The notes beneath the pieces are model-generated. The model saw only the letters and a program-made list of their open reading frames with translations, searched no databases and was not told the DNA's origin. From assembly GCF_004010195.1 (NCBI RefSeq), contig NC_057759.1, positions 2,337,199 through 2,401,198 of the forward strand: a DNA stretch of 64,000 nucleotides, read 5' to 3'. A program made the position numbers and the translations under genes. Shown here piece by piece: positions 22,056 through 52,904 of the stretch (the first letter of the stretch is position 1; each line of letters opens with the position of its first letter). The DNA comes from Chiloscyllium plagiosum. Taxonomy: Eukaryota.

Positions 22056-22097
22056 GGTGGCACGGTGGCACAGTGGTTAGCACTGCTGCCTCACAGC
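22056..22097 (+). mobile_element. HE1 SINE 5' head only, between two copies of a 144-bp duplication
   Basis: GGTGGCACGGTGGCACAGTGGTTAGCACTGCTGCCTCACAGC. Confidence 0.75.
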
Positions 22098-25807: not shown

Positions 25808-26718
25808 TCAATATTTATATTTACTATATACTTGAATGATTAACAAAACTGGATATTGCATTGCGTTCTTGAGCTGCCGTCTAAACCTGGACTGGGTCAC
25901 CACGTAAATAAATGTGTTTGTGCAGCAATTTAAGTTCACCAACATATACCCAACTCGTTGAAATATATGTTCAGAAGCATTATAGTTCTCAATACTTTTA
26001 CCTGTAATGTTATAATACATGAACTCTATAACAGACAGCAACCAAAGCAATATGAACGTGCCAGAAATGGTGAAGAGTAAAATTACGGACTTGCGTCTGC
26101 TCTCCATCTCTGAGTCATTGTGTTTCTCTTCTTTGTTCTGACACTTCAGTACCTTACGGATGCGAGTAGCCACTAAAATGCGTTGAACTGTCATAGCATT
26201 GAGCAATAAGATGAAAGTGAATGGAAGCAATGGGGTGATAATCCTGTCAAACCAATCAAATACCATCCATCCAGGCTCAGTAAAATAGCTTGGCTTTACT
26301 AGACACAACCATGGTATATTATCAATTATTTCTCCAGGTTCCACTACAAAGTAGAAGGGAATGTTTTTCATACCCAGCAGAATGCAGGTCGTTGCTAAAA
26401 CTACTGCTGCAGTTTTGCCAGTGCAATATATTATCTTCAGCTTCTGGCAACAAATTGCCACAAATCGATCAAGGGAGAAAGTGATGGTGAACCAGACCGA
26501 GCAGTCTGTGGCGATACGACTCATGAGGAAGATGCTATTGCACACAGGGGTTATATTCAGGAAAGATTCTGGAAAATAATAATAATTGATCCGATACAGT
26601 ACGATATCAGTGATAATGAACAGTAGATCTGCAACAGCCATTGCTGTGAGGTACCGTGTGGTGCAGGTGGAAAGGCCACACTTTGCTTGAGCGAGTACTC
26701 CAATTCCCACGAAATTAA
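25808..26718 (-). CDS. GPR139-like: GPR139/GPR142-like class A GPCR, coding exon 2 (end of TM1 to stop)
   Basis: Open frame of 300 aa with rhodopsin-family hallmarks: TM2 AMAVADL, TM3 SLDRFVAICCQ, Cys in ECL2, TM6 FILLW, TM7 CCTNTFIY. Acceptor tttgtacAG at 26720-26719 precedes TT AAT TTC GTG, so the track's GTG start at 26710 is an internal Val. Confidence 0.92.
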
Positions 26719-29295
26719 CTGTACAAAGTGCAAAGAAGCGAATATGTTGGAAATTGTTTTCGGATTCAATTCCATGCCTGGCTCAGTTAGACATGATAGA
26801 ACTATAACATCAAAAATTACTAAATTGGGATAATGCCAGAGGTTATTACATAAAAAGTGCTCAACCCCCGTATAAACATGTCTGCTTCCATATATGACAA
26901 AAAAAAAAGACAATGATCTCTAGAATTGTGCTGCCCAGCTGCTTGTTCAAGGAACCTAAAAATAGTGAAATCTGCAGGTGTTGCAGAATCAGAGCGGATA
27001 TAGAGTGGACCGAGAAAGAAATGCAACATCAAAGAAGGAGAGTCGATGTTTCAGGTCAGAAACATTCCCTTGGAGCATATGGGTCAAACCCATGTTGGTG
27101 GGACTAGTTTAATTTGGGATTATGGTCGGCATAGACTGCTTGAACAGTTTCCTGTGCTGTGTAACTCTAGACTCTGTAAACTCAATACCAGCGATAAGAT
27201 AATATACACAAAGTGCTGTGAATCTTTTGAAATAAATAAACACGAAAGCCATAGATACTTAGGCAGTTTCTGTGGTGAGATAAACATTGATAATGATTCG
27301 AGCTGTGAGCCAGTTATAAAAAAAAACTTTAAGATAGTCGCGATTTAAACTCTTAAACCAATTATGCATTCATTAAAATTTGAAATGAGTAGAAGGAACA
27401 AATAGGAAAGGGCGTCATCGGTTAGATTCAAGAATTGAGTCAACAGCTGAAACTATGACGAAACTGGAGATTTGGAATAAGTAAAATGTCATCTGATCAA
27501 CTTACATTATTCGATCAGTAGGGCAGAGGATCAAAAGCACCATTATAGTGGAAGTGCCATTGACCTTGAAATTCGAAGTAGAGAAAACTGATAAATGCCA
27601 GGCTATGTCAAAGACTCTCAGCAGCACAATTCTTTAGATCCTCGCAATCAGAAATTAACCCAATATCCCATTAATCCCGTTCATTCCAATTTTGCCAAAT
27701 TCCATGATAAACACAAGTTATCAAATGAAGTGTGGTGACTGGATAAAATGCTAATTGTGTAATCACAATATTGTGTTCATTACACCAAGTGAACATCGAC
27801 AATAAGACGAAGCAGAAGAAAATGGAAACAATGTCTTCAAAATAGCTTTCTTCTAAAATTTGCTAAGTGGAAGAAGAATACAGGCGAAATTCCGAGGTGT
27901 CCTATGGAAACAAGTCTAACATGGAACCATAGAGGTCCCAATAGCAAGAACATTGGAGTGTTTAACCGGATTGTACAGAGATGTAATTTCCAAAAAAAAA
28001 TCTTAAACAGGATCAATGTCAGCAAACGGCAAGACTTTTCACTCCTGGACATGACCTCATGTACAAGCGGTGATTTGCAGTGGAAATGATGCCTGTCTGC
28101 CATTAGCAGTTACTTGAGGGAATTAATCAAAATTTCAGCCTGAGGCATATTGTCTATCAGTGGCGATTCTGTTCATTAAGATATTAAGGATACAAGTTAA
28201 CCTGAATATATTTGTAGAGTCCAAGGGCACATGTTCACAAATATAAGAAAAAAAAACAACTTTCTCCAATAGTTTCCAATCTCTGGAGGGAATTGTCACA
28301 CTTGTGGTGGGGATGTCGAAAAAGAAAATATGTTGAGCGTTCAAAAGCATGCAAATTGAAATGAACTGTCCGAGTAGAGAAGCAAGGCTGCCATGCAATG
28401 TTGAATAAGTATAAGATATTTAACGATGGACTTTCACCAGGTTTAACATCTGGAGGTTTAACAAAAGTAATATTTGACAACACGAGAATAACTCTTTCCC
28501 GTGAGTGGCTTATTCACACAAATATAAAAGGGAATAAGCAAAAGAAAGTGGTCATACATCTGTACTGTAATCATCGCCATAACATATAATAGTACTGGGA
28601 GGGTAGCAATCTTATTCTGAATCAATGCAGAACATAAAACAAGGACAGGGAGCTATGGATTAATTTGCACAATTCATTTGGTACTAAATATGATTTTACT
28701 CCAATTCAAATATGCCATAGACACAACTCGAAATAACGAAACAGAGTAAATTCAGTTAAATAAGAAAAGGCAAATTTGCCATTCCTAATATATTGAATGT
28801 AGTGAATAAATAAATTAAAGAATATAAAATCACATGGAAACAAGAGTGGGGAATTCAGCTACTGGACCTTGTTGAATAATTTAATGAAGTCATGGATAAT
28901 CTATATCCCCATATGCCTGTATTTAGCCCATTTCCCTTATTACCTTCAATTAATTAAAAAAACACTGTCTCGGATGTAAAAGTAGCAAGTGATCTAGCAG
29001 TTGCTCCCGTTTTGGGAAAAAAGTCCCAAGCCTCTATCATTTTTATGTATAAATGTGCTTCATAACTTTTCTCCTGAACAGTCTAGATCTGATACAGCAG
29101 ATATAGATCTAATTCCGGAGGTACTTCAGTAAGAATTGAGAATCACATCAGTACTTATCAAAGTTATACCATTGATAAGCTTTTTACTGAACAGTTTTCA
29201 CCTGCTGATTGAAATGGGCCATTCTCAAACTTATATTTAAAAAAAAAGTTCAACCTCATATTCACACAAGTGTAATGGTCATAAATCATGCTTAC

Positions 29296-29362
29296 CAGGA
29301 ACACCAATGAAAGCGAGTATTGGGTAATATATCTTCTCAGCGCTGTACAGTTTTTGGAGCAT
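29296..29362 (-). CDS. GPR139-like: GPR139/GPR142-like GPCR, coding exon 1 (MLQKLYSAEKIYYPILAFIGVP + G)
   Basis: ATG at 29362-29360, 22 codons plus 1 nt, then donor GTAAGC at 29295. The phase-1 join G|TT gives ...IGVP-V-NFVGI and restores TM1. 67+911 = 978 nt = 325 aa plus stop. Confidence 0.88.
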
Positions 29363-30489
29363 TCTTTGCGCGCAGTTTTAAGTCCTTGGGCGCTGTAGCT
29401 AAGCTCTCTGTCAAGAGACTGAGTTATTTCACCCGGAGAGCTTCTCAGTTATATCATTAAGGGAGTCAAGGGAATATTGAAATTGCATCATCATTCCATG
29501 TTCTTTTAATTTTGAACAAACAACTTACAAAACTGAATACATTTGTGATGTGATATAGCAGAGATTTTTCTAATGCTGAATTAAAAACATCTTATACCCC
29601 TTCACCTTCCTTCAATAATACAAAATGTGGATACATATTGTCCGATAAGTACTTTACGAAATTTATTAGCAAGTCAAATGGAGCATTGTTGTATAATAAG
29701 AAGCAATGGTTTTATTTTAAATTGCAGATCTACAGGCGTTGGTGAGACAATATTTGCTCTACCATATTTATTTTGAATCCCTATTTTGAAAAGAATACAA
29801 AGAAAGAAATTCAGACTTGGAGGTAGAGCATTTGTTGTGTGTAAAAAGACCAGAGGACACTATACACATACATAGTGGACATCAACAAATGCGATGCTTT
29901 GCAAGGGTGCATATCAGAACGATGGTTCATATTGTGGAGGAAACTAAAGTACAGTGACATTTAAAGTTTAAATGATGTATGTGAAGTACTTTGTTTTTCA
30001 GAAGACAATTAACATGTGGCAAACTCTTCTCAATGAAATGATGGAGAATGTGTCATTAGATTGATATAATGACAAATAAGATAGATTTTTGATAGTCAAT
30101 TTGGTGATGGGCTATTAGAGTGTGCCAAGGGAGTACGCAAACAAAATACAATTGAGAGCAGAACCAGACCTGTTCTATGGTGTTGCATAGATTTTATAAT
30201 TAATCCCTGTCTTAAAAACGAAGAAACGTTCCTGACTTTTGTTTCTTTTTTGAACAACCAAACTGTGGTTTAGCATTTCGAAAATCCAATTACATTACTA
30301 AGTTAGTCTGTAACAACTTGGCTGTTGAAATAAGATGGTCAAACAACAGCCTGCTTTTACATTGTCCCCTTTCCTCTCCGGTAAGACCATAATAATATAA
30401 AGATACAGCAACAGTATTAGGCTTTTCGTCCCATCGAGTCATCTCCATTATTCGATAATGGCCTAAGTATTTTCAAATGTCGCTATATG

Positions 30490-31279
30490 TATTTTAAAAT
30501 TGATTTGGTCTGTCCTGGTTTACTTGAAGAAAGGTTTTGTCAACATGATGTCGAGGTGCTACTCCATTGCTGCTAGATTCATTCTGTTAGTGTTCCTTCT
30601 CCTGGACTAGACCAGATAACAAGTGAGGAAATGTGGTTTCCTTGACTTTGCCTTTACCAAGGGTTCGGTCATTCGCTGCTATTATATTACAACAACTAAT
30701 GATTAGTAGTGTTCTTTTTTTTTGTTGGCAATTTCAATAGTCATGAAATTATTCCAAGTTTTCTTCTTTGTGTTTGTATTTTAGCTATGGTATACGAATA
30801 ACGTCTGTTTGCTTACAGTTGCCTCATACTAAGATAAATGTTAATGTGTAAATGATCACTTTGATATGTTTTGAAGGGGTTTAGTTTCGTCTGTAACAAA
30901 TTGGGAACTCTTGTTGGGATCAAAATCCCTCATATCGGGTTGGGTTTGGCCTTACTGGATTCAAATTTATTGAGTGATGGTGTCCTTTTTTCAGGTGTTG
31001 AACTCGACTGCTTCAAGTGGAGTGCAACGTGTATGATAGTCGATTTTTATTTTTGTTGTCTAAGAGTTTCCTGAGTGTTAACGAAGTCACTTGAAATGGT
31101 TTAAGGCGAAGTGTTCATAATTGGCAGATAAACTAATGTTGAGATTGCCTGTGCTCTTAAGGCAACATGAGATAATTGTAGCAAATGATAAATATATACA
31201 GTTACGAGAAATGCAATAATTGGAAATAACTAATATTCAACTGCAATTTAAACAGATCGAATTAAGGGTGAAAGCAAGA

Positions 31280-31333
<54 letters not shown>

Positions 31334-31420
31334 CGCAGTAGAACAAAGACAAAACAATTAAAACAGCCTGAATTTGAAAAGGAAAATAAACAGTTTGAGT
31401 TATGATTACAATCAGAAGAA
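30490..31420 (+). mobile_element. Truncated LTR retrotransposon: LTR remnant, degenerate PBS and gag N-terminus
   Basis: LTR-type end GTCTGTAACA about 30898 followed by TTGGGAACTC; coiled-coil gag-like EITNIQLQFKQIELR containing a (GA)n run. Confidence 0.6.
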
Positions 31421-31759
31421 AGAAATTGATAAAGGGAGAAAATTTCAATTTTTTTTGCAAAGCAGCAGCAGTAAAGAGAGAGCTATATCTAATAGATTCA
31501 ACTCTAAAAACCTAACTGAATTGATAGTTAAAACCCTGCATCTGTGTAAGACTGCCTCCACCAATTTATGGTTTTACTAATTAATTTTAAAAGCTATTTT
31601 CTGATTTCTATGCAGCAACCACCTCCACACCAGACTGGAAAACACCCCTCGTCAAGAGGACAGAACAATTCCTCATAAAGGGAGATGTCATCACACAACC
31701 ATATTCACCAGTCTTCTCTCAAAGATGATTTGCCTTTTAAGATTCAAGAACGTATTTTT

Positions 31760-32515
31760 CTCTGTCTGCCATTACTTGGCAACTACAATTTTCTGTGGTA
31801 ATTAGTTCCATAGATTCATCACCATCTAGCTGAAGAAATTCCTCCTCATTTCAAATCTAAAGTGTTGTCTACTCACTCATAGTGTCTGTGCTTGTGAAAT
31901 AATCTTTTTTCACGGACAGTCTCTCTAGGACACTCAGTGCTTTGTATGTTTCAATGAGAGCCCCTTCATCCTTCTAAACTCCACGGAGACTCCAAAGTTC
32001 TCAACTGCTCTACATATGACAAGCAATTCGTCCCCCGATTATTCTTGTAAAATTCCTCTGACCCCTTCCAATACCAGCACTTTGTTATTTAGATACGAGC
32101 CCAATGCTGCTCGCAACATTTCAAATGCAGTCTGACTAGAACCCTGCACAATAACTGCAGTACAACTCTGCTGTAGTATTCTTGTGCAATTGAAACGTAT
32201 GTGAACATTGCATTTGTATTCCTAACTGCCAACTGAACTGGCATCTTAACCTTAATGGAATCCTGAACCAGGTCTCTGAAATCCCTTTGTGTTTCAGAAT
32301 TCTGAAGCCTTTGCCAATTTAGAAAACAATCTACTTATCTATTCTTCCTAACATATAAATAATCTCGCACTTTTCCATATTGCATTGCGTAGACCACTTC
32401 TGTGCCGAAACTTCTAAATTGTCTGAGTCCTTCCACAGCCTCTTGGCTTCCTCAAAATTCACCTCCAGCAATGTTTGCAGCATCGGCAATAATGCCCTCA
32501 GTTCCTTCATCCAGT
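31760..32515 (-). mobile_element. CR1-like LINE 3' fragment, degraded
   Basis: Reverse strand reads VLVRLHLKCCEQHWARI*, GVRGILQE and GFRRMKGALIETYKAL, all CR1 C-terminal-like. Confidence 0.7.
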
Positions 32516-32612
32516 CTCAGGCTATTGGTTTCATCTCGAATGTGAAGAGTGTCTTCCTCCTTTCAACTGCTTTCTGCTTACAATTACAGGGATAACAATG
32601 AATCATCTTGAA

Positions 32613-32732
32613 TCGTCTTGTCTTCCACTTCCAACTAGATGTTTATGGTGCTATCTTGTTATTACAGGGATAACAATGAATCATAACTAGATAGCACCAT
32701 AAACATCTAGTTGGAAGTGGAAGACAAGACGA
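32613..32732. repeat. Inverted repeat: 50-bp arms with 1 mismatch and a 20-nt loop
   Basis: 32613-32662 is the reverse complement of 32683-32732; ATTACAGGGATAACAATGAATCAT occurs at both 32583-32606 and 32661-32684. Confidence 0.95.
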
Positions 32733-35079
32733 GAGACAAAGAGGCAAGAGGTGATTCATCGTAAACGCTGCAATACGCCCCATTATGCCAGGGATTGAAT
32801 TGAATTGAATTGAACAACTTGTTTTCACGTATTCTCAGTGATATACAGAGAAAAGTATACTATTGCAATAATCCTGCACCATGTTGAGATACTTAAATAG
32901 AGTTCATCTTCAGCAGCTGGTGTGCCAAGCACTGCTCCCGGAATTCTGCAAGCTGTTGGTGAAATTTCCATTCTAGGCAGACTCAGACAAGGTCCCCACT
33001 TGGGCCATCGCGCTGCGGCAGTTGACAACCGGACATCGCTGCCGAGAGTCCATGCTCTGCCATCTCTACAGCTGAAACTTCGCTTCCAACCCAGGAATCC
33101 ACTCTTTGGGCCGACAACACTTGGAGTACACACTCCACTATCGCTGAAAGCCATGAATACCCAGCCTCCAACTCTTTAATGGCAATGACAAAATCAGCTA
33201 CAGACGAGCAACTCACTTGCTCAAAATTCAACTAATGCTTCTGAACTAAGCAGAATGGGAACCATTTGTTCTGCACATCAGCTCCTTCTCCATATCCCGA
33301 CGTCACAATAGTAACTGTGGCACACAGAGACTTCCCACATTCCCATATATTGAATGGAAATATTTCCTTTGAACAAATAGATTTATCTTTGTAATGTTTG
33401 TACAAAGCATCGATTATCTTCAAACCTGTGGTGTTGCGAAATGTGTTCATCATCTCAAAACGAAAATGACACAGACTTACAAACTTGCCTGTGTTATCAC
33501 TGGTATGTTCTCGCTGATTTGACTAGAGTAGGGTTTAACACGAGAAATGAATCTTTCAGATTGCATGTCTTTAACCAGTTGTGATCTGGAAGCAATTAGT
33601 TGCAAAAGAAGAGGAGAGTGCCTGTATTCCTTCGTCAATATATCGATGATCCAGTACTGACACCACACATATTTGCTGCAGGAAGAGAATGATCTAAGGC
33701 TGAGTGCAGATTCAAAGACAGCTAATCTGTGACTGTCATCCCATTTCAGTCAATAATTTACCATAATTTGAAACAGAAATTACATTCCCTTCCAGTGCAG
33801 AAGAAGAATCATAGATTCATGGAATGGAATGGATGGAATGCACACGATGCTGTCTGGGTGCATTCAAACAACTTCATGTGACTGCTAAATTTCATGATTT
33901 GAACTCCTATTTTGACTGTGTATTAACCCATGCTGCTCTGCGAACAGCTGCTGAAGAGAAATAAGCGATGGCATTATTTTATACAGAGCGAAACCAGACA
34001 ATTTGTGGATTCATTTTCTCCAAAATACATTAAATACACGAACACTTATGATAAAGTGAATTAATGGACGCCCATAGACTTGGAACTCTCAGGTGGGATA
34101 GGTTTTTTTTCCTTCTTCACCTCGGTGTTCCCTGTCATTCATCACTCTAAGAATAAATTTTATCTCCCATAGGATTTAGGAATTCTATGTATGAATGTTA
34201 TTGTCAATTTGATGCAATTATGCAAGCTATAGTTGAAAATAATTGAGTGTGGCATTTTCAATTCATGTTCACGTTTGGAAGATAACAAACTGCTCCAAAA
34301 GCCCACTTCATCAAAGCAAAACTAAAATAAGATCAAAAATTGGATATGATCCTGGGATGGTGCATATCACATTCCTTACTGTGGTAGTAGGTATGCCACA
34401 ACCAAATGTATTGTGTCAAATTCAGAACATGGACTCTATGACTCTAATTACACTTGCTAACATTCAGCAACAGAGGCTGGGTCTTCGGTTACAGGAGGGT
34501 ACATTCGAATGATTTGGGAGGTTGGTGAGCCTTTGCTCTTTCTTTGCGTTCTTCATTGTATTGTGGGATCTCAAACATACCAATAATCCATGGAAAACTT
34601 ACTTTCATTACTTTTCTTGTTTCAATTTCAAGCAGCGGCAACACAGATTTTATGTCCTGGAGAATGTGACATAGACACCGTCCAGCAGTAGTGAAGGGGA
34701 AGGATTATCGGGGTTCGTCATACCAAGCAGTCACATCGCTTTGGGACAACACTCAAGAAAGTGTTGTTAATTCCATCTCAACTAATAAAAAAATGACCGA
34801 GTAGAACAACTTGGGTATATAAATAAATATGATCAGATCGCATTAACTGAGATATGGCTGCAGAATGATCTAATTTCGCACTTAAGTATTGAAGGGTGTA
34901 CATCATTTCGGAAGACCTAGAAAGTATAAAGGAGTGGCTCTGTTAATTAAAGACGATATGACCACAATAGCAAATGATTATGTAAATGAAGAAAGCCATC
35001 ATGAATATATCGTCTGTAGAAATGAGGAACATTAAATGGAAAATATCAATTGCGGGCATTGAATACAGGAGCAGGTTTA

Positions 35080-36600
35080 AAAAATGCAATTTTAAAGATA
35101 GAGGAGCATGTTGATGGTGAGAGCCGAGGAGATACGCAATTCAGAAGGACTATTGCCAGAAAAAGTGGTAATACATGGAATTCATGCTGTAACCCGTTCC
35201 ATAGTGTAAAATGAGGTTGCGGTGTCCGTTCAAACGTAATGAAGCGTTGGTGGGAGTAAGAGAGAAACTCCCGCTTCCAGAAATAGATATGTCGTTGGTG
35301 AAGATATGGTGGAATCACAGATGGGTGTGATGTGTACAGTGATTGAAAAGCCAGTGGAAAATCAGGAAACGAAAATATATCCTCGTATTTTTCCTGACTG
35401 TGAACTAACAAGTTCACAGGCAGGTTGAAGCAGGAGGATAAAACAAAGTACAAAGATAAGGACATTAAAGTTCCATTATCAAAACCATGTTGGATCAAAT
35501 GGTTGAGACAACAAAAAAAAATGCAGGTGGAGGAGAAAGTGATATTTTTCGTTCAGAGAAATTATTTGAAGTAAAATAGAAAGATGAAAAAACTAAAGCA
35601 GTTGTACCAAAAAGCGCCAGTTAAGAACTATCTCAGTGTTGCTCACAATGTTACTATCTTAAAATCGATGTCTTGATACGGAACTATTCAGGCCGATGAG
35701 AAATGGCAGAAGTTCATCAAACTGTATTACCAATGGGTTCTAAAAAGATGTTGCAGGTAGTACCTGTAGGAGATCTTTTGCGAGTAAGAAAAACTCAAGC
35801 CAGAGGCAAAAACATTTTATTGGACTGTACTGCAGAAATGTAGTTAAATTTCTCTGAACATGTCGTATACGTCAGACAATTGGAAAACCGCTACCAGCAC
35901 CCTTAATACTCATTCTCGTATTTGGGGAAACTTTTACAAGAGACTTAACTGATTGCATAGGAACCCCACCCAAAACCAAAGTGAGTGCGAATCAATAGCT
36001 GATCACCAGAATGCACTTGTCCAATTCAAATCCATAATCCCAGGGAGTAGGAAAACGATGGCATAAAATATTAAAAATTGTGTTCAGAGTTTACAGTCAG
36101 GACTATCCAGAGGATGTTTTCCTTTGTTCAGTGATAGGATGAGGCGCTACCAGTAAGTTTGGCACTTATTGCCCACCCCAAAGAACAGTTAAGATTCAGC
36201 CACATTGCTGGAAATGTGGAGTGACACATAGTCTAGATCAGGTGACGATGGCAGTTTCCTTCCCAAAAGGATGCTGTTACGGGGATAAGGCATTCCATTA
36301 ATACGTTTTGCATTTGTAGATGCACGAAATGAATACACCAAATTCAGTCCATTTGAATTAATTTTGGGGCATGAGCTAAGAGGACCAATTAATTTACTTG
36401 AGAAATTGATTCGTCAGTTTTCAGAGAGCACATATTTGGTGTATGTCTCTAATTTTAGGGAAAGGTTAAATGGAACAGTGATTTGATTAAACAACATTTA
36501 AAATTAGCACAACATGTTTTGAAATAGAAGGCGACCAAGAATTTCTTTTTTTAAAACTCACCATGTTAGTGGTGGAGATAATGTTTCATTTTTAAGAGGT
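35080..36600 (+). mobile_element. Gmr1-like pol remnant (protease region then integrase)
   Basis: KTQA...KHFYW-like and C.TCQTIGKP-like segments about 35790-35890 and SPFELILGHELRGP about 36345-36390, homologous to 9000-9750. Confidence 0.7.
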
Positions 36601-37999
36601 AAAATGGCAATTTCCATTTCTTGAAAATGAAACGGATATTAAAGGAAGGGCTGCTCACTACAGCTATATAGTGCTGCTTATATTGGGTTTGTTATTTAGA
36701 GCTTTGTTGTCATATTTTGAAGAAAAAATGGTTAATTGCAGAGAAGTTTCAGACGATTCATTTTTTCCCTCATAAATGGTTGAAGATATATAACTGACTT
36801 ATTCAAAGTTGTAATAGATTTATTGTTATGTGATATGTAGAAAATTGAAAAGGGGCAAACAACAGATTTATTTCAAGCCCCATTAACCGATACACCATGA
36901 TTTTATGAAAGAACTGGTTCACCAGTGCTGCTTTTTAAAACTATCCAACATTTATTCCTATGTCTTGCGTGATTCTTTTGATCTTCCAGACATAAATTCG
37001 ACAAAACCAAATGCCTGATACAGATTGACCCAAGACTCAATTGTACTGCTGTAATGTCTGATTTAACCTTCTCCCACTCAAACTGCAGACTGAAAACTAA
37101 CAGATTAAGGCCACTGCCTTCAATATTATTTTAAGTTTCTAATCATGTCTGCTTCATTGTACATTACGGAAAACCGAATTGCCTGTTTACTCGTGGGGTC
37201 CACTAGTAAACAAATCCATACACATTCTATTAATTGTTTTTTTTTTTACTTGGTTATTGCAATGGTATCGTTCGTACACGCCTTTTCTAACTCCGGATTT
37301 ACTCCCAGTTCATGACGACGGACTAGTTGATACCTAACTCCCATTATGGTTCATTTTCCTTTGTGAATCCTTAGCTCTACCCACACAGATTCTGTGACTC
37401 CTGGCTCTATTTCACTTCCTGCCATAGATTTAATTTTAATTTTTATTGAAAATGGAACACAGCAACACTCCTTTTCGCCTTTCTCTCTCGTTCTCTCTGA
37501 TTTTCTCTCTCTACCTATCTACCCATAGTCAGACATGTCACGAGTTTCCTTTTCGGAAGCAAGTCCCAACTTTCCCATTGTTTTAACATCAGTCTCGTGT
37601 TGCACATAAAATGTGTCAATTTGGTAAGGCGAACTGTGGAGTAAAAAAGCATTGAAGTTGAAATTTCCAGTTTAGCAAAAATCAATCCATGGAACAAGAA
37701 AATCACTTAATTCTGGCATTGAAGTTTTCAGCGATTCCAAAATCAGTCGTTTTTCAATTAATACTCAGTCTTTTGCCAGCATGCCTTACTGAATATCTGT
37801 GTGGCTGCATCAGAAAATAACAGGATCCCTTGCTGTTTCAATGCTCCTAATTGTGTAATTCTAGCTGGTGTAGTGAAATCAACGATTAAAGATATTTAAA
37901 TACAATACTAAACCCAAATCATTCTATTACTACAGTTAGATTTATAGTTACGCTTTTACTCATAATCAATGGAAGATATCAATGGATTTGAAGCTAAAT

Positions 38000-38392: not shown

Positions 38393-38549
38393 AAGGCTAC
38401 ATGCACTGGTCCTGCTGCTTTCTCACAGTCGTTATTAAATGTTGGCAGAACGCACAACATCACTTCAAACATTGTTACAGCTCCATTGACTAGCTCGAGA
38501 TTTGCAATAAAATGCAGCATTACAAAATTTCTTATAGCTGTGCATATTA

Positions 38550-38960
38550 TGTTTTAATGATCCAAAGAACTGAATTAAACAGACAAATAAACATTTTTTC
38601 AGCTGTTTATTGGATTTGCTCTGGGTCATAGCGTAAATAAATGTATTTGTGCAGCAGCTCATCAACAAATTATGCAGAAAAATCTTTACTTTTTCCAAAG
38701 TATAACATTCTTCTCCATATCGAATATACCACTAATAGTAACCATAAAAGAATGAAATTTGCGGAGAGTGTAAACATTAAAATAATAGATTTCCTACAAT
38801 GTGCTACGTGGACGTTATGAGACAAAATGTTATGATGTTCGACAAAATATATTGATCTGTAAACATAAAATATCGGATAATGTTCTTTATGCAAGTCATG
38901 ACAGTCACTATTCCCAGCATCACAGCTACAGTTTTCTCAGTGCAATATTTATGTTTCATC
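38550..38960 (-). pseudogene. GPR139-like pseudogene, 3' part of exon 2 (ICL2/TM4, TM6, TM7)
   Basis: MKHKYCTEKTVAVMLGIVTVMTCIKNI, RKSIILMFTLSANFILLW and SCCTNTFIYAMTQSK match the intact paralog in different frames; TM5/ICL3 is deleted. The 3' boundary is approximate. Confidence 0.88.
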
Positions 38961-41900
38961 TATATAAGTCAGTGTCTTCTCAACCCGAGATCCTACTTTT
39001 GTAGGGCCTCCCACCCAACCACCTCCTGTAACCTTAAAGACCGGGAACACGTCAGGCAAGCAACTCGTTTTTACTTTGTGACCAAGGGACGAGCAAGGAT
39101 GGCAGTGCAGGAAGAGCAATGTTCCTCCTGCATGATGTTTGAGGTCAGGGACGCCGATAGTGTCCCATCCAAGAACATCTGCAGGAAGTACACCCAACTC
39201 TCGCCTCCTCCTAGACCGTGTTAGGGAACTGGAGCGTGAGCTGGATGAACTTCGGATCATTCGGGAGGCAGAGACAGTAATAGAGGGGGTTACAAAGAGG
39301 TAGTTACTTCGAGGCATGAAGAACGCTGGGTGACTGTTCAAAAGGGGAAAAAGCAGTCAGTGCAGGGATCCCCTGTGGTCGTTACCCTGAAAAACATGTA
39401 TACCGTTTTGGATACTGTTGAGGGGGCGACTTACTAGGGACAAGCAGTGGGGACGGGTCTCTGGCACAGAACCTGTCTGTGTTGCACAGAAGGGAAGGAG
39501 GGAAAAGAGGAGAATGTTAGTCATTGGGGACTCTATACTTAGAGGCTCAGATCGAAGGTTTGTAGGGAACGACCGAGACTTGCGGTTGGTGTGTTGCCTC
39601 CCGGGTGCCAGGGTCTGTGATGTCTCGGATTGTATCTTTGGGGTCCTGAGGGGAGAGGGAGCCCAGCCTCAAGTCTTTGTCCATATAGATACCAATGAAA
39701 TAGGTAGAAAGAGGAATAGGTATGTAAGGCAGGATTTCAGGGAGCTAGGGAGGAAGCTGAGAGCTAGAACAAACAGAGTTGTTATCTCTGGACTTTTGCC
39801 CATGCCACGTGATAAGGAGGCAAGGAATAGGGAGAGATATCAGATAAACGCGTCGCTGCAAGGATGGTGCAGGAGGGAGGGTTTTAGGTTTTTGATAATT
39901 GGGGCTCGTTCTCGGGAAGGTGGGACTTGTACAAACTGGACGCTCTTCACTTGAACCAGAGGGGTACTAATATCCTGGGTGGGAAATTTGCTGGTGCTAT
40001 TCGGATGGGTTTAAACTAGCTCAGCAGGGGAATGGGAACCGCAGGTGTAACTGCAGTGCACAGGAGGATGAGAGTAAGAAGGACAGGGACAGGATTGCAG
40101 GGTCACAGGAATGTGCTGGCAGACTGCAAAGTGGTTTGAAGTGTGTCTACTTCAACACCAGAAGTATCCGAAATAAGGTAGGTGATCTTGCAGCATGGAT
40201 AGGTACTTGGGACTTCGATGTTGTGGCCATTTCGGAGACATGGATAGAGAAGGGTGAGGAATGGATGTTGCAGGTTCCAGTTTTTAGATCTTTCATTAAA
40301 AACAGGCAAAGTGGTAAAAGAGGGGGAGGCGTGGCCTTGTTAGTCAAAGATAGTATAACTGAGGTAGTGTGGGCTGAGGTTATAAACAAGAAAGGAAAGG
40401 TCATATTTCTTGGAGTTTTTCATAGGCCTCCGCAGCGTTCCAGGGAGGTGGAAGTGAGGATTAGCAACATTATTCTGCGTAAGAGTGAAAGGAACAGGGT
40501 GGTCATTATGGGGGATTTTAACTTTCCTTACATTAATTGAAACTGTTATAGCTCTAGTACGTCAGTTGGATCAGTTTTTCTCCAATGTATACAGGAGGGT
40601 TTCTTGACACAGTATGTCGAAGGGCCGACACGAGGGGAGGCCGCACTGGATCTGGTGCTTGGTAATGAACCAGGCCAGGTGTTCGATTTAGTTGCAGGTG
40701 TGCACTTTGGAGAGAGTGACCATAATTCAGTTACTTTTAGTTTAGCGTTGGAAAGGGATAGGTACATGCCACAGGGTCGGAGTTATCGATGGGGCAAGGG
40801 CAATTATAATGCGATTAGGCAAGAATTAGTATACATAGAATGGGGTAGCAAAATGCAGGGGATGAAGACAATCGAAATGTGGAGCTGGTTTAAAGAACAG
40901 ATAGTGTGTGTCCTTCATAGATATGTCCCTGTCAGGCAGGGAGGAAGTGATAAGGTAAGGGAACTGTGGTTTACTACAGAAATTGCATCTGGGGTTAAGA
41001 AGAAGAAAGAGGCTTATGTGTTAATGAGGCAAGATAGTACAGATGAGGCGATGGAGAGTTCAGATCAGCTAGGAAGGATTTAAAGAGAGAGTTAAGAAGA
41101 GCAAAGAGAGGTCACGAGCAGTCTCCAGCAAATATGATAAAGGAGAACCCTAATGCTTTCTAAAGGTATGTGAGGAATAAAAGGATGATTAGGGTAGGAA
41201 TAGGACCAGTTAAAGACAGAATCGGTGTTCATTCAGGAAAAGGATAATATTGTAGAGGAGAAGAATGAGGTACGAGGTATTAGACTAGAAAGGATGGAGG
41301 TTAGTTACGCACAGGTGTTATCAATTTTAGAAGGAGTGAAAGTAGACAAGTCCCTTGGGCCGGATGGGATTTATCCGAGGATTCTCTGGGAAGCTATGGA
41401 GGAGATAGCAGAGCGTTTGGCTTTGATATTTGAGTCGTCATAATCTACATGTTTATTACCTGAGGACTGGAGGACTGAAGGGCAGCAGAGATGACCCAGT
41501 TAATTATGAACCAGTGAGCCTTACTTCTATTCTAGGAAAGGTTTCGGAAAGGATAATGAGAGATAAGATTTATAATCATCTAGCAAGCAACAATTTGATT
41601 TCAGATATTCAACATGGTTTCGTCAAGGGCAGGTCGTGTCTCACAAACGTCATTGAGTTTTTGAAGAAGGTAACCCAGCATGTAGATGAGGGTAGGGCAG
41701 TTGATGTGGTATACTTGTACTTCAGTAAAGCCTTTGATAAGGTTCCACATGATAGGCGAATGGAGAAAACGCAGATGCATGGAATTGAGGGTGATTTAGC
41801 AGTTTGGATTAGAAACTGGAATTCTGGAAGAAGGCAGCGAGTGGTGGTTGATGGAAAATATTCAATCTGGAGTCCAGTTACTAGTGGTGTGTAACAAGGA

Positions 41901-42850
41901 TCTGTTTTGGAACCACTGCTGTTTGTCATTTTTATAAGTGACTTAGACGCAGGCACAGGTAGATGGATTAGTAAATTTGCCGATGACACTAAAGTCGGTG
42001 AAGTAGTGGACAGTTTGGAAGAATATTATAGATTGCAGGGGGACTTGGACAAATTGCAGAATTGGGCTAACAGGTGGCAAATTGAGTTCAATCCAACTAA
42101 ATGTGAGGTGATGCACTTGGGAAGAATAACAGGATGACAGAGTACTTCGTCAATGGAAAGATTCATGGTAGTGTGGATGTGCAGAGGGATATTGGAGTCC
42201 ATGGACATAGATCACTGAAAGTTGCCACCCAGGTTGATAGTGCTGTTTAGAAGGCATACGTTGTGTTAGGTTTCATTGGTAGAGGGATTGAGTTCTGGAA
42301 CCGCAATATCATGCTGAAACTATACAAAATGTTGGTGTGGCCACACTTGTACAGTTCTGCTCGCTCCATTACAGAAAGGATGTGGAAGCATTGGAAAAGG
42401 TGCAGAGGAGATTTACCAGTCGCCTGGTCTGGAGGGAAGGTCTTATGAGGAAAGGCTGAGAGATTTGGATATGTTCTCATTGGATAGAAGAAACCTAAGG
42501 GGGGATTTGATAGAGACATACAAGATGATCAGAGGATTAGATAGAGTAGACAGAGAAAGACTTTTTTCTAGGATGATGACGTCAGCTTGTACGAGAGGGC
42601 AAATTGAGGGGTGATGGATTTAAGACAGATGTTAGAGGTAAGTTCTTTACGCAGAGAGTGGTAAGGGCGTGGAATGCCCTACTTGCTAGGGTAGTCAACT
42701 CAGTCACATTAGGGAGATTTAAACAATCCATAGATAAGCACATAGATGATCTTGGGATAGTGCGGGGGACGAGCTGAGAACAGTTCACAGATCAGCGCAA
42801 CATCGAGGGCCGAAGGGCCTGTTCTGCGCTGTATTATTCTATGTTCTATG
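38961..42850 (+). mobile_element. Near full-length CR1/HER1-like LINE (ORF1 Zn finger plus SGNH esterase; ORF2 APE endonuclease plus RT), disabled
   Basis: CSSCMMFE...C, LVIGDSILRG, YFNTRSIRNK, AISETW, MGDFNFP, QHGFVKGRSCLTN, FSKAFDKVPH, KFADDTK; 3' tail (TTCTATG)n. The flanks rejoin into the GPCR pseudogene. Confidence 0.95.
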
Positions 42851-43131
42851 TTCTGGCAACAAATTGTCACATTGCGACCAAAAGTAAGCCGCAGTAAATC
42901 AGACAGAACAATCAGTGGCTCCATAACTTAGGACTGCATGAATATTGCACACACAAATCGAATATCGCAGCTAATAAAATTCTTCATGCAAAATGCATGG
43001 AATATGCCTCAGTATCACATCCAGGCTAATAAGCGGAAGTTCTGCCACTGCCGTGGCCACCAGCCATCTAGAAACACATTTGGAGAGACCACATTTTCCC
43101 CATGATAGTATTCTAGTTACTATAACGTTAA
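42851..43131 (-). pseudogene. GPR139-like pseudogene, 5' part of exon 2 (TM1 end to TM3)
   Basis: Translates VNVIVTRILSWGKCGLSKCVSRWLVATAVAEL...VCNIHAVLSYGATDCSV*FTAA/TFGRNVTICCQ, collinear with the intact paralog. Stops at 42973-42971 and 42901-42899, a frameshift in TM3, and the acceptor position reads TG instead of AG. Confidence 0.88.
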
Positions 43132-44300
43132 CAGTGTGCAACGGATATAATCAGGGAAATTAGGCTGCGAGCAAAACTACCATATTGTTCGTACAGACAC
43201 ACACTTACAAATGTACTATTGTATTAAAATAATTGTATCATTTAAAGTATATAACAGTATTGATTTATAGTCATGCCCAGTCATTCATTTAAATCCAGAT
43301 TTCAATAAAATGAATATCGGTGATGAAAACTAGCATATGAACCTGGATATAAATCCCTCTACTTCAGATATTTGGGCTTTTCCGAGATCAGCAGAGTCAT
43401 CCAAATTATGCAATGTACAGTTATCTAAGCAAGACAGATAGAGTTGGGTTTAGGTAGTCCAACGGTGATGTGACATGTGTCATTCAGAAATATGTTCAAT
43501 TATGTTTCTCTTGTAGATGAGTATCGTTACAATGTTGCAAATATTGTCTTCTGCGACAGGAAGTTGGTAAATAGCTTGGGTTCACCCTGGATATTTTGAT
43601 TTTGATTGAGTGGGGCAGATTTACACAACTGAAAAGCATTTTGGTTTTGCATTCAGTTAGATGGTTGCTGGAGATAAAAACTTTGTGTTCTCTGCTCCCA
43701 GAATGAAGAGACAGCACATGAGAATTATAACTATTTCTCTGAATTGCATTTTTGCCAAAGAGTGTGCTCACGGGGGCATGCTGTTAGCATTGGAGTGTTT
43801 GATGAGACGTGGTTAAGGAATGTATTACCTTGTTAAGTTTTCCTATAGAATAATATTATGTCAATTGTTGTTGTAATTACACTTCAACCGAATTGTAAGA
43901 ATAAATTGAGTTTTGATTAAAGCTCAGTGGTGGACAAATCGAATCATATCGGGTAGTCAATACCTTACACTTTCCTTTTGAAAATAAAGAAGCGACTGTC
44001 CAGGCAATCTCCAAGATATACTCTTTTGAATAGGTGGGGTGTCCGGTGTCTGGTCCAATTAGTGATGCAGAGTATAACATGCCTGGAATTTATTTAAACA
44101 TAATCAAGAACGCATCCTGGACTCGAGAGAGGAAGTGCATCAAGACTGCAAAACAGTTAAATGAGGCATTAGAGAAAGTCCAAAACCAGTGACAATGTCT
44201 TGAGAAGCAAAGAGTATGTCAGCTGTAAATTAAGCATAAACAAATCAGATGCACATTCCACAGCTTCCGCCAGAACTGAGTAAGAGATTTGTGAGACTCT

Positions 44301-44536
44301 GAACGGTACCAAACCCAGAAGTGAGAGGAAGAGATTTAGGATATTAGCGTTGAAATAAGGAGCTCTGCATTTTTTTTTTCTTGAAATGGTGTATTTATTC
44401 ATTACTGTCACATTTAACCGAACGGTACCAAACCCAGAAGTGAGAGGAAGAGATTTAGGATATTAGCGTTGAAATAAGGAGCTCTGCATTTTTTTTTTTG
44501 AAATGGTGTATTTATTCATTACTGTCACATTTAACC
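44301..44536 (+). repeat. Tandem duplication, 119 bp + 117 bp
   Basis: 44301-44419 and 44420-44536 differ only in the poly-T tract. Confidence 0.95.
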
Positions 44537-44709
44537 AGACAGAGTGTACCGTGTTGTCTTGCTTGCCAGACAGACAAAACGTACCGTACAAGGTGCATCA
44601 GGGGAACAGAACAGAGTGCAGAGTACAGTGCTACAGCACAGAGACGGTGCAGAAGGAGATTAGAATTAACATTTTCGGAAACTGGGTGAATTGCAGAACA
44701 CACAAATAA

Positions 44710-45730
44710 TTCATGAAAATAAGCAGCGGATAATACCGAAGAGACTATATGAAAAGGGCAGTGAGTGCAATTGACAGAGTGCAGGGCTATCAGTTACAGG
44801 ATAAACAAGCAGTGATGGAAATGTGAGAATCAGTGAGCTAAAGGTCTTATTAAAAGTTAGGGTAAATGTTGAGAAGCAGATCAGGAGATATAAAGCACAG
44901 AGAGTGAGTCTCTGATGAGTGACCAAGAAGAACATTGACAAAACCAGTGAGTGTAGAATCAGATATCAACACGATTATCAACAGTGTATTAACAAAGACA
45001 CTAATAGGAATGTAAGGTAGAGAGAGAACATGTAGAATATGTCGACAAGAGTATCATCAACTGAAAGAGTAAATAATCTGTAGTGAAAATAATACATCAG
45101 TTTAGAAAGTTGCTGCAAAGTCAGACCAAACGAACGTAAACAGACCAAGTGTGCCGAGAGTGAAGAAACACGAGGTAGCCAACAGAGAGATTGAGTGTCG
45201 AGCCAGGGATCAGTATAACTATCAGCAAGTGAGATTGACAGTAAAATGGGGGCCAAAATAGGACAATCAGCAGACATAGAGAGATACAAAAAGAGAGAGC
45301 AATCTTGAACCTCATGAAAGCGTTTGGGGAATCAGTGAGAGATCTGGAGGAACATCATTAGAGATCTTAACTGCAAAATGAGAACCAACAAATAAATTAG
45401 CAGAACAAGTCAGCGCAGAATGTCAGACCAAGAGGAAGATCAGCAGAGAGTGAGTGCAAAATAAGAGACAAAATACATCAGCAGTAAGAATGCGAATAGT
45501 GAGAGACAAAAAAAAATACACTGTACCACCGAAAATTAGTGCACGTTAAGACCAAGAAGAAAATCAACAGAATGTTAGTGTACAGTGAGAAACGAAGAGA
45601 AATATCAGTGAGATTGTCTGTAGAAGGTGAAGTAAATGGACGGTCGGCGGAGACAATAAATGTAGAGTGAGAGATTAAGAGGAAACATTAGCAGAGAGAT
45701 AATGCCGAGAGAGAATTATGCAAAGAGACT
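44710..45730. repeat. Diverged purine-rich tandem array, unit about 40 bp
   Basis: Recurring CAGAGAGTGAGTG...GAGACCAAGAG.AA.ATCAG motif. Confidence 0.55.
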
Positions 45731-45939
45731 GATGATAAACTGGAGAAAAGTAAACCTTATAATGGGGCCAATACGCAGCTGAAAATTGGTTGACTGAGCT
45801 GAATGAAGCCCGTCTCATGACAGGTTTTGAATATAAGGTGGGTAAAGGACATGGAATGTAGTATTAAGGTAATAAAAAATATTGAATTCGATATCGAATC
45901 CTGAAAACTGCACAGTGCCTAAGCGGTAAATAAGATGTT

Positions 45940-46239
45940 GTGGTTCTGTTCGCCGAGCTGGAAGTTTTTGTTGCAAACGTTTCGTCCCCTGGCTAGGCGA
46001 CATCATCAGTGCTTGGGAGCCTCCTGCGAAGCGCTTCTTTGATGTTTCCTCCAGTGTTTATAGTGGTCTGTCCCTGCCGCTTCCGGTTGTCAGTTTCAGC
46101 TGTCCGCTGTAGTGGTTGGTATATTGGGTCCAGGTCGATGTGTTTGTTGATGGAGTTTGTGGATGAATGCCATGCCTCTAGGAATTCCCTGGCTGTTCCC
46201 TGTCTGGCTTGCCCTATGATAGTAGTGTTGTTCGACTGG
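45940..46239 (-). mobile_element. Younger Penelope-like 3' fragment (GIY-YIG C-terminus plus hammerhead motif)
   Basis: TTIIGQARQGTAREFLEAWHSSTNSINKHIDLDPIYQPL followed by CTGATGA...GAAAC. Confidence 0.82.
45972..46012 (-). ncRNA. Minimal type I hammerhead ribozyme-like motif
   Basis: GCA-CUGAUGA-U-GUCGCCUAGCCAGGGGAC-GAAA-CGUU-UGC: conserved core boxes, stem II, palindromic stem III, 3-bp stem I. Confidence 0.65.
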
Positions 46240-47233
46240 GATGCTATTCTTCCAGTTTGCACTGAACCTCGCTGCAGCAGTGTGACATGCTCGAGACAGC
46301 AATGTTGGCCGGGGAGCACACTGATAATTTTGAAGAGGCAGGCATCAGGAAACCGGATGTTGTTTTATGAACAGAACATATATGTTCCACAAAGCAGTCA
46401 CCCAATCTGTGTTCTTCTACCTACTATAGAATGGATCACACTGCGAGCAATGAATACAGTAGTCGATACTGAGTGTTCTTAAATCACTGTTTCACAATAG
46501 TGTGTCTAGAGCCTTGAACAGTGAGAGAGGACAAATCAGATGGGAAACTTGCTCACATCAAAAACAGAAATTGTTGGCAAAAAGCAATAGGTGTGGCATT
46601 GCCTGGGGAGAAAATCAGGGTTAAAAGAAATTTTAATTTTTTTGTGTGAAATGTTGCACACTCTGCATTTGCATTGGAAGGTGATGTACAAATGTAGGGA
46701 GGTATAAGGAGTAAAGTAAGAGTGGACGTGGGTACCCTCGGCAGACCAGGCCCAGTGATATGCTGACAAGAGAGGAAATGAGGAGATGAGTCTGCAGGTG
46801 ACATCCCACTGGATGTGATGCAAATGGTAGCACAGGAGCCATTGGATGTGGATGTTGGAGGGGTGAAAAGCAAGGACTTGCAGAACCTAGCAATGCTTCC
46901 AGAGAGGAGATAACAATATCTAAAGTATATAAAATGGGTCATACATGGGTAAGGATCCTCTCAAACATAGTGGCGCTCAGTCTTTACTTGAGGAAAGATA
47001 TTTCTGAGCTCCACCGCTCCCTTCTCCAACTTTGGAAGGTTACATTTTCAGATTAGATGAGGTGGAGACAGAGAAAGTGGAAGAATTCAACCTAGTCCTT
47101 ACAGGAAGCTGCGTGAGAGGCTGTATTGGTCAAGACGTCTCTGGTAGCTAATGGTTTGTCGTGGATACACGTAGCTAGCCTATCTCCAGCAACTGATAAG
47201 GAGATGTTGATGAAGGTAAGAGAGAAGTCAAAG

Positions 47234-47588
47234 ATAGAATAGAATCATGGAATCCCTACTGTGTGGAAGCAGACCCTTTGGCCCAACAAGTATACACTGA
47301 CCTCCGAAGAGCTACTCACTCAGACCTATTCCCCTACACTGTTATCCTATACTTTTTCCCTTGACTAATGCATCTAACCTACATATCCCTAAGCAAAATG
47401 GGCAATTTAGCATGGCCAATTATCCTAACCTGCACAATTTTGGATTGTGAGAAGAAACTTGAGCATTCGGAGAAATCTCGCGCAGACACAGGGAGAATGT
47501 GAAAACTTGACACATCAATCGCCTGAGGCGAGAATCGAACCCGGGTCTCTGGCGCTATGAGGCAGCAGTGCCACTGAGTCACTGTGCC
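47234..47588 (-). mobile_element. HE1-like SINE
   Basis: Reverse strand has the head GGCACAGTGACTCAGTGG...GACCCGGGTTCGATTC, the HE1 core and a CR1-type tail. Confidence 0.85.
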
Positions 47589-49267
47589 TGATGAAACATG
47601 TGAAGGTGAGAACTGGTTGCGCATTGATGTTATTTTTGAATTCCAAACAAGCGAAGGCAGTAGCGCTAATGATGGTATTTATATACCTGAGAAATAGTTG
47701 ATACCAGAAGTGTTGGCAGAGGAATTAAGAAGGAATGTTCCACATAACCGACAAAGAGGCAGATGTGAGTGGAGCCCATGCTATTATCCATGGTCACACC
47801 TTTGAAGTGAGAAACTGAGAGTTGTTAAAAGAGTGGTTCAAACTTTGATGAGCTTGTCCAGGTGGTGGATAATGGTTTTGGATTGGAACAGCTCAGGCTT
47901 TCCTTCCGGAAAAAAAAAGATCTCCTCAAAATAATCCTCCTGATGTAAGATGGATATGCAGAGGGGGTGAAATTCTATGATAAAGTGGAGGCGGCTGGTA
48001 CATGTGAACTACAATTATTGAAACTGAATTAAAACATTAGAGGAACTGCAAACGTAAGTGGGAGGCGATTGGTTTTAGCAAAGAGAATCATGTCAAACCA
48101 GTCAAAAACAAAACTTAGTGGGGCAGGAAATGGCAGAGCCAATATTTGTGTATTTGGCCAAAAAGATACAAGTGGGCTGTCTGTGGTTGAGTGAATGTGA
48201 CTTTGGAGGCTGTGCAAGGTAGGGATGGGAGCGATCTCTAAATGAAATGAAAATAGTGGCATTCATGGACACAGCAACTGATGTTAGATAGTGCGGCCAT
48301 GTTTTGGGGGAAAATAAAAGAGGTGGCAGAGTGCAGTCACTCTGCTCTAACAATGTAGACATCAGTATATCAGACAACAACCGCACCACCTTTGTTGGAA
48401 GGAATAATTACAATTTCGGAATTGGGTCTAGGAGCTTGGTGTGCAATCAGTTCAGAGGGAGATAGACTAAATGGTGAGGCAAGGTGCATTCAATGGGGGG
48501 TGTTCTCATAGAAAAGTCAGGTCGCGTGCAGTTAAAATTCCAGATGGAGTGAACCAATTGAAATGAAAATATTGGAGTTTGTTTGGGAAGAGCAATCTGT
48601 TCTGAAGTTATGGAATAGAGAAGAAGGTGATGGATGAACAATTCAACATCGTGTCATGCCCGAAATAAATTCCTTGATGGGTTTTGATTTGAGTGATTAG
48701 GAATAAAACTAAGGTACTTACTGAGTACAGAATGTTCAGCATCAGAGAGTTGTTTTAATGTTTTTTTGACATGTGTTCATGGACGCCACGCGTTGGCATT
48801 GAGAGGATCAATTAATTGCTACTCGCATGGGGAGTAAAGAATGGGCATACTGCAGTGACAGTATTGATGGTCTAGCCCCGGTGTAAGCATGAGAGCAGAG
48901 CAGACTGGAAATGACAGTGAGAGAACGTAAGAATATATGAAATTCAAGAGCAGCAATAAAAGAACTTGCCAAGATAGAAATGGCAATGAGCGTGAAGTGA
49001 ACTCGGCCAAAATGCGGACAAAGAAGGCAAGCAATCAACAATGATTCATGTTAGCAGATCAATGGGTGAATTTCTATAATTAGCAGTTACACCAAAAACA
49101 GAAAGAAAAATGAGGCCAAAGCACAATGATTATAATTAATGATATTTAATCAGTGAATATTCAGGAAAAGATAATGTAAACAAACAGTCACGTGACCAAG
49201 AAGGGTACCGCAAATCACAAGTACAGTCATACTGGCTTACAGAATTTATTGTGAGAAACAGACTTAC

Positions 49268-49403
49268 CAGGGACTCCAACACTCCCAAGGAAGGGATAGA
49301 AAATGTAAGCAAAACCCTGATGTGATGCCTGGATTGTTAATGTTGAATTTATACAAACACAGTAAAGATAGTAAAGCCAGGCAGAAATGCAACTACACAT
49401 CAT
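49268..49403 (-). pseudogene. Probable exon 1 of the GPR139-like pseudogene
   Basis: ATG at 49403, 45 codons ending FAYIFYPFLGSVGVP + G, then donor GTAAGT at 49267. Same motif and same phase as exon 1 of the intact gene. Pairing with exon 2 at 43131 is inferred from order and strand. Confidence 0.72.
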
Positions 49404-52400: not shown

Positions 52401-52641
52401 TCGTATGGTTTCATTGCGTGAGAAACCTTTCTGATAGATTAACTACATCCTGTCACTGCCCTATCTTCAACTGCCCTCCTCCCAGATATGTGGTTCTGAT
52501 TCCCACACCCCTGTGAAACTAATTTAAACCATCCTGAACCACACGAGCAAATCTCTCACCCAGGATATTTGACCCCCTCCAGTTCAAGTGCAACCCGTTC
52601 TTTATATACAGGTCCCACATTCCCCAGAAGGCATCTTCTTC

Positions 52642-52876: not shown

Positions 52877-52904
52877 GTACCTGACTGTTGCTTCCCTCAC
52901 TATT

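Follow-up and report, generated by a model that had tools for sequence, protein, structure and literature searches.

The receptor GPR139 is reported to be encoded by a two-exon gene with human and zebrafish orthologs that are 70% identical (PMC7318219), to be highly conserved (PMC12208981), and to need F109, H187, W241, and N271 for activation, with Trp and Phe sharing this site (PMC5430874). The wider GPR139/142 clade is described as also containing the MIP, FMRFamide, and myosuppressin receptors of invertebrates (PMC8514136, PMC11004728), and GPR210A/B are orphans from fish and coelacanth that belong to the GPR139/142 group, reported in a paper that mentions no sharks or cartilaginous fish (PMC6504862). 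The chemoreceptor repertoires of sharks have been described as very small, with about 50 genes in the catshark, where the olfactory set comprises 2 OR, 6 OR-like, 3 ORA, 3 TAAR, 2 TARL, 32 V2R, and 3 V2R-like genes (PMC11979771). These small repertoires sit oddly with the reliance of sharks on chemical cues. Here, we analyze a 64,000-nucleotide stretch of Chiloscyllium plagiosum DNA (contig NC_057759.1, positions 2,337,199 to 2,401,198; "the window") that carries an intact receptor gene, gene A, and a dead same-strand paralog, gene B. Both belong to a large multi-copy chondrichthyan receptor family that evolves by birth and death and that displays, besides an intact receptor and pseudogenization, paralog arrays on several chromosomes, a fixed activation and G-protein side, and a variable pocket.

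We found no description of this family in the open literature, most subscription journals being outside the scope of the search, and GPR139 is absent from the accessible main text of the catshark sensory-genome paper (PMC11979771). The genes themselves are already annotated in NCBI, but their name conceals the expansion; added here are the amphibian-sturgeon sister gene, the contrast between ortholog and paralog pockets, and the finding that Trp/Phe residues have been lost.

An intact receptor gene and its dead paralog

The window is repeat rich (40.6% GC), and its sole long non-repeat open reading frame (ORF) is a seven-transmembrane receptor exon on the minus strand. Gene A (29362-25808, minus strand) is an intact, two-exon class A (rhodopsin-like) G protein-coupled receptor (GPCR) gene. 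Exon 1 (29296..29362) consists of 22 codons plus one G, encodes a short N terminus and the first half of transmembrane helix 1 (TM1), and ends in the phase-1 donor G/GTAAG. A GT...AG intron of 2,577 nt (26719..29295), which carries a repeat fragment near 27100, separates it from exon 2 (25808..26718), which encodes the remainder of TM1 through TM7, helix 8, and the stop codon TGA. The spliced product is 325 amino acids long with a single, terminal stop, and the gene model is confirmed by several 325-amino-acid horn-shark relatives that have the same start and junction. Candidate flanking signals on the same strand are a TATA-like box (TATAAG; 29590..29596) ~230 nt 5' of the ATG and poly(A) signals at 25356..25450 (AATAAA at 25450 and 25361). 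Exon 2 matches PF00001 (7tm_1) in Pfam at 61.6 bits, relative to a cut-off of 30.5, and gene A carries D2.50, C3.25, D-R-x, P5.50, W6.48, and N7.49/Y7.53, while P6.50 and P7.50 are absent. Its AlphaFold model (pLDDT 85.8, pTM 0.82) has a class A fold with seven helices and a beta-hairpin extracellular loop 2 (ECL2), and Foldseek aligns it to class A receptors with a TM score of about 0.7. DNA run X1, which has the same species label as the window, differs from the window by ~1% and contains exon 2 of gene A without a listed gap.

Gene B (49483-38567, minus strand) is a pseudogene lying 9 kb upstream of gene A. Its exon 1 (49268..49483) is of the long-N-terminus type, aligns with the longer N terminus of a different subfamily, and has a frameshift near 49426 and an intact donor. 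The 5' part of exon 2 (TM1 to TM3; 42853..43131) is preceded by TG rather than AG at the acceptor and contains stops at 42973 and 42901 and a frameshift near 42886. In the 3' part (38567..38962), TM4 and ECL2 are followed by TM6 and TM7 in different frames, and about 65 to 70 codons (TM5 and intracellular loop 3 [ICL3]) are deleted between ECL2 and TM6; this part matches positions 93-143, 204-243, and 243-293 of the family hidden Markov model (HMM). The two parts are split by a near-full-length but decayed long interspersed nuclear element (LINE) of ~3.9 kb (~38963..42853, ends approximate; plus strand), which is inserted antisense in ICL2 and encodes an esterase-like ORF1 (PF13472, below cut-off), an endonuclease (PF03372), and reverse transcriptase (RT) pieces (PF00078), followed by a short-repeat 3' tail. 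From this layout, we take it to be of the CR1/L2 type. A second LINE of the same type (49577..53636, minus strand) lies upstream of gene B and ends ~90 nt from its ATG, at the expected place of the promoter, and LINEs are dense around both genes. Gene B has thus been destroyed by stops, frameshifts, a lost acceptor, the TM5 deletion, and the LINE insertion.

These results uphold the initial annotation of one intact and one dead gene, although two details of it need amendment. The start it gave to gene B, at 49403, is an internal ATG, with an upstream ATG at 49483, and the two-exon plan it described for both genes is common to them in the junction (YP...GVP+G/GTAAG, at 49268 in gene B) but not in the short exon 1, which only gene A has. 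The regions upstream of genes A and B have no similarity to each other above chance (best E value, 0.49), and neither TRF nor an ungapped lag scan detected a 26-bp satellite upstream of either gene. The family HMM matched A and B only, with i-E values of 3e-18 to 7e-9 for the pieces of B; since the best value elsewhere in the window was 0.9, the matches to A and B are far beyond chance. The same HMM scan found no third family copy in the window. Stray tblastn matches there were rejected as extra copies, their source being the repeat-derived N termini of mis-modeled database proteins.

Family size and relationships

Gene A has 1,701 relatives at 90% clustering. Among the 120 of these that were listed, all are from sharks, with 54 to 69% identity: 78 from Heterodontus (horn shark), 16 from Pristiophorus, 7 from Mustelus, 6 from Scyliorhinus torazame, 5 from Heptranchias, 4 from Cetorhinus, 2 from Stegostoma, and 1 each from Chiloscyllium and S. 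canicula. The 78 listed horn-shark proteins, 26 and 12 of which sit on two chromosome-length contigs, were reduced to 63 when copies more than 85% identical were collapsed. Querying with a divergent skate member returned 1,704 matches (90% clustering) and extended the range to Mobula, Narcine, Hypanus, Leucoraja, and Rhinoraja. All 21 family-clade proteins that were given names are chondrichthyan, including one from the chimaera Callorhinchus that nests inside the family. The suggestion that the pair belongs to a lineage-specific, multi-copy family undergoing birth and death is therefore borne out by the number of relatives and by pseudogene B, and, where this could be tested, there were many copies rather than one or two genome-wide. 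The proposed expansion is lineage specific, as had been suggested, but the Callorhinchus protein shows that it is not restricted to elasmobranchs.

The species represented in the window likewise has many paralogs of gene A. At coding positions of gene A, divergent X1 contigs numbered 22 (25883), 39 (26093), 68 (26435), 95 (26473), and 101 (26456, a peak that may include repeat-like matches), relative to 1 or 2 at the listed non-repeat intron and untranslated-region positions. Contigs are not copies, and X1 gives no count; summed contig depth was not taken as copy number. The NCBI name of gene A relatives is "probable GPR139," and many database models of family members carry junk, repeat-derived N termini. 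Other members are filed as capa receptor-like, vasopressin V2 receptor-like, CysLT1-like, GPR15-like, or CCR3-like proteins. Because of these varied names and N termini, counts by name will be wrong. At least 63 distinct horn-shark members in one subfamily alone, bearing the pocket signature of a repertoire (see below), have thus been masked by a misleading database name.

Exhaustive searching of the 50% representatives yielded 106 matches to an E value of 1e-30, and the best match named as non-chondrichthyan was a salamander protein (114.6 bits against gene A). Searching from this protein retrieved 25 proteins, namely, 20 amphibian rows from 20 different named species, 1 from sturgeon, and 4 from chondrichthyans; this was a word-index search, which does not by itself show absence from other groups. 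In a 46-row IQ-TREE tree (LG+G4), the shark family and the amphibian-sturgeon gene formed a clade (100/98), and the shark-family branch alone had support of 94/85 (not starred). A 119-row FastTree tree had the same outline; neither set contained GPR139 or GPR142 sequences. On these trees, the amphibian-sturgeon gene appears as the sister lineage of the shark family and its nearest bony-vertebrate relative. It is apparently single-copy, with one cluster per named species in the 20 amphibian rows, and it shares with the shark family the ICL3 DPE motif and FDR at 24 to 29% identity to gene A. This orphan GPCR (P0231 and P0280-P0299) is also called "probable GPR139" in the database, yet it scores only 53 bits against human GPR139. 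The coelacanth and teleost proteins P0247, P0242, and P0264, which are probably the GPR210 orphans, are the next relatives and fall outside the shark and amphibian clade.

Some subfamilies are common to sharks and rays. Gene A falls in one such shark-plus-ray subfamily (100/99), and gene B falls in another subfamily (100/99). The divergence of genes A and B is therefore old, and they form a mixed cluster rather than a recent tandem pair, so that, while the two are clearly diverged as first described, rapid divergence after a local tandem duplication does not account for them.

Among solved structures, the characterized receptor closest to gene A by sequence appears to be GPR139. The human protein was the best match in a single-sequence search (E value, 1.6e-8; 37.4 bits), and profile A1, which includes 7 non-shark rows and was run against solved structures only, gave it 6.7e-34, compared with 5.6e-26 for the next receptor. 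The label "GPR139/GPR142-like" is apt to this extent, although the nearest bony-vertebrate relative is the amphibian-sturgeon gene. Foldseek did not single out GPR139, which ranked fifth with near-equal scores among neighbors that are mostly peptide receptors at 15 to 21% identity. Like GPR139 and GPR142, the shark family has a two-exon gene, W6.48, and a TM7 motif without P7.50; unlike them, it is multi-copy, carries C3.25 (289/297 full-length family rows, a set that includes gene A and near-duplicates), and rarely keeps P6.50 (22/297).

These matches, the two-exon structure of both genes, and the NCBI name might suggest that gene A is the shark GPR139/GPR142 ortholog or an amino acid sensor that works similarly. 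We consider this extremely improbable. Identity to human GPR139 is ~26% by hand count (about 63/242 aligned pairs) and 20 to 21% by structure, versus 70% between the human and zebrafish orthologs, and the amphibian gene outscores human GPR139 against gene A (114.6 versus 37.4 bits). The four activation sites of GPR139 (F109 3x33, H187 5x43, W241 6x48, and N271 7x38) correspond to 3.33, 5.42, 6.48, and 7.39 in the motif-anchored numbering used here. At these sites, gene A has F3.33 replaced by R, H5.42 by D, and N7.39 by Y, with W6.48 alone kept. Across the 297 rows, none keeps all four residues, 7 keep three, 63 keep two, 224 keep one, and 3 keep none. Where it could be tested, gene A was thus not ortholog-like, and we reject it as the GPR139 ortholog on the basis of its identity, its agonist residues, and its multi-copy family. 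This agrees with the doubt expressed in the initial annotation, whereas the amino acid sensing that it proposed is unsupported. All 21 amphibian rows, on the other hand, keep three of the four residues (F3.33, W6.48, and N7.39) together with a basic K6.51 at the position of R244 in GPR139. Since shark rows mostly keep one, the pocket of the ancestor was probably similar to that of GPR139 and was later given up by the shark copies; the single-copy amphibian gene is a natural point of reference when the ancestral ligand is sought.

Pocket variation on a fixed signaling core

Per-site diversity was compared at 32 pocket and 128 other TM positions in 78 horn-shark paralogs (mean identity, 76%) and 21 amphibian orthologs (77%; 22 sequences were given, one of which was below the length filter). 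In the paralogs, diversity was 0.41 in the pocket versus 0.19 at other TM positions (P = 8e-5), whereas in the orthologs it was 0.04 versus 0.19 (P = 4e-5); non-pocket TM diversity was equal in the two sets (0.189 and 0.188). The excess in the paralogs persisted in the collapsed 63-row subset (P = 1e-4), and the deficit in the orthologs remained when the pocket was compared with non-pocket sites of the outer TM half (P = 3e-4). Diversity in ECL3 was 0.48 in the paralogs versus 0.12 in the amphibians, while in ICL1 to ICL3 it was 0.09 to 0.17 versus 0.14 to 0.41. C3.25, D3.49, W6.48, N7.49, and Y7.53 are present in 78/78 horn-shark paralogs and R3.50 in 77/78. Fixed motifs alongside a variable pocket speak against mere decay and favor a single pathway fed by many ligands. 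A tally of 74 distinct pocket combinations among the 78 paralogs was discounted as evidence, the sites having been chosen post hoc.

Acids are common at 2.57, 3.37, 5.39, and 5.42 (63 to 73 of the 78 paralogs), with D or E at 5.42 in 63/78 paralogs and 189/297 family rows, and 60/78 have a pocket that is net acidic. These conserved acids suggest that many members bind cationic ligands, such as amines or basic peptides, rather than free Trp or Phe. In teleost clade III TAARs, Asp5.42 reportedly serves as the counter-ion to the amine (PMC4695389), a parallel that we regard as a lead only.

On balance, we lean toward the family being a repertoire deployed in sensory cells that reads outside chemicals; gene A would be one of its working copies and gene B one that has died. 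The starting point would have been one receptor whose pocket resembled that of GPR139. It apparently persists as a lone copy in amphibians and sturgeon, and its duplication would have begun before the chimaera/elasmobranch split. The copies would then have altered their pockets such that each binds different ligands while all signal via one shared pathway. The receptors would most likely sit either in chemosensory cells (of the olfactory, taste, gill, skin, or gut type) or in somatosensory afferents. Outside chemicals would be the stimulus, cationic for many members, although of all these steps the ligand class is the least secure. A more specific form of this proposal is possible rather than probable: that the family constitutes an unrecognized fifth vertebrate chemoreceptor family in cartilaginous fishes, derived from the GPR139/FMRFamide-receptor lineage, outnumbering their known olfactory receptor genes combined, expressed in olfactory or surface chemosensory tissue, and using Asp5.42 and neighboring acids to read waterborne amines or basic peptides.

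Several observations weigh against a sensory repertoire. The pocket list consisted of general class A positions numbered from motifs rather than taken from a liganded structure; the paralog excess was borderline relative to non-pocket sites of the outer TM half (0.41 versus 0.29; P = 0.077); and a low-copy subclade (19 rows) showed no pocket excess (0.20 versus 0.24; P = 0.42). The pocket of gene A itself is charge balanced (4 acids and 4 bases). Immune receptor families have the same pattern. Moreover, in the catshark study, the 50 genes most specific to a brain and olfactory epithelium library include no GPCR, although V2Rs are absent there too (PMC11979771). The RNA runs, of unstated tissue, weigh neither for nor against expression: X18 (~6% of the run, 80% likeness) gave 0 matching reads, and X17 (~2% of the run, 80% likeness) gave 402 partly fitting reads, mostly on repeats. 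The few X17 exon 2 reads lay on both strands, differed from gene A (16/17 at 26473), and in no case matched it; X19 gave traces only.

Birth and death with a variable pocket is also what would be predicted of an innate-immune repertoire in granulocytes, mast-like cells, or barrier epithelia that senses microbial, parasite, or host-defense peptides in the manner of mammalian FPRs and MRGPRs. The modeled beta-hairpin ECL2 resembles that of peptide receptors, the Foldseek neighbors are mostly such receptors, and the acidic pocket of most paralogs would suit this role; these neighbors do not discriminate, however, given their low identities and near-equal scores. The wider clade is also reported to include invertebrate peptide receptors (PMC8514136). 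We judge an immune role unlikely, though far from negligible; if correct, it would give the oldest lineage of jawed vertebrates a new repertoire of innate receptors. That the receptors instead serve diversified peptides or metabolites of the animal's own, with endocrine, reproductive, or pheromonal functions in many organs, would accord with some subclades being low-copy and conserved across sharks and rays, with the reported responses of GPR139 to Trp, Phe, and melanocortin peptides (PMC7318219), and with the frequent expression of catshark OR, TAAR, and V2R genes outside the nose (PMC11979771). Endogenous ligands normally hold pockets fixed, however, as in the amphibian orthologs, and dozens of variants would be unneeded, which makes this account improbable. 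A mostly neutral expansion, in which repeat-mediated duplication left redundant and decaying copies, might be read from the LINEs around both genes, the destruction of gene B, and the junk N termini of many database models, but relaxation would erode signaling motifs that are nearly invariant here, non-pocket TM diversity matches that of orthologs, and subfamilies are common to sharks and rays. We consider it very improbable.

Surrounding sequence and comparison with known receptor families

No other gene was found in the window, and an Rfam scan of it gave 0 matches. A 1,245-bp direct duplication at 99.4% identity (17009-18253 and 18690-19934), ~2 kb from an assembly gap (14707-14716), could be either a recent duplication or an assembly artifact; its spacer and ends carry coding sequence for a retroelement-like RT fragment with no Pfam match, presumably Penelope-like. 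A decayed ORF at 11052-11393 (plus strand), also lacking a Pfam match, resembles what we take to be an RT fragment of a long terminal repeat (LTR) retrotransposon. About 3.3 kb upstream of gene A lies a near-perfect palindrome of 120 bp (32613-32732; 88.5% self-complementary), possibly a small DNA-transposon remnant. Short head-to-tail duplications occur at 21912-22251 (144 bp at 97%) and 44301-44536 (119 bp at 98%), and an inverted pair of ~530 bp at 87.8% identity (55477-55997 and 56715-57245) stands on either side of a CA-rich tract.

Of the known systems, the amphibian-sturgeon gene is the closest to the shark family and differs from it in copy number and in its nearly invariant pocket. 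The OR, clade III TAAR, V1R, and MRGPR/FPR expansions resemble the shark family in their clusters, pseudogenes, short N termini, and variable pockets on a fixed core, and teleost clade III TAARs also share Asp5.42. Unlike ORs, TAARs, and V1Rs, the family is of other ancestry, with GPR139 as its best human match, and has an intron inside TM1; gene A matches 7tm_1 alone in Pfam rather than any OR, TAAR, or V1R family. Invertebrate chemoreceptor expansions arose from the FMRFamide/MIP/Srw receptor clade, the same deep clade as GPR139/142. Gene A has no match to Srw (PF10324) up to an E value of 0.1, although this domain is precomputed on 2 of 120 rows from the skate-member search and Atlas neighbors include PF10324 Srw clusters. 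Relative to these invertebrate expansions, the shark family would be an independent, vertebrate one.

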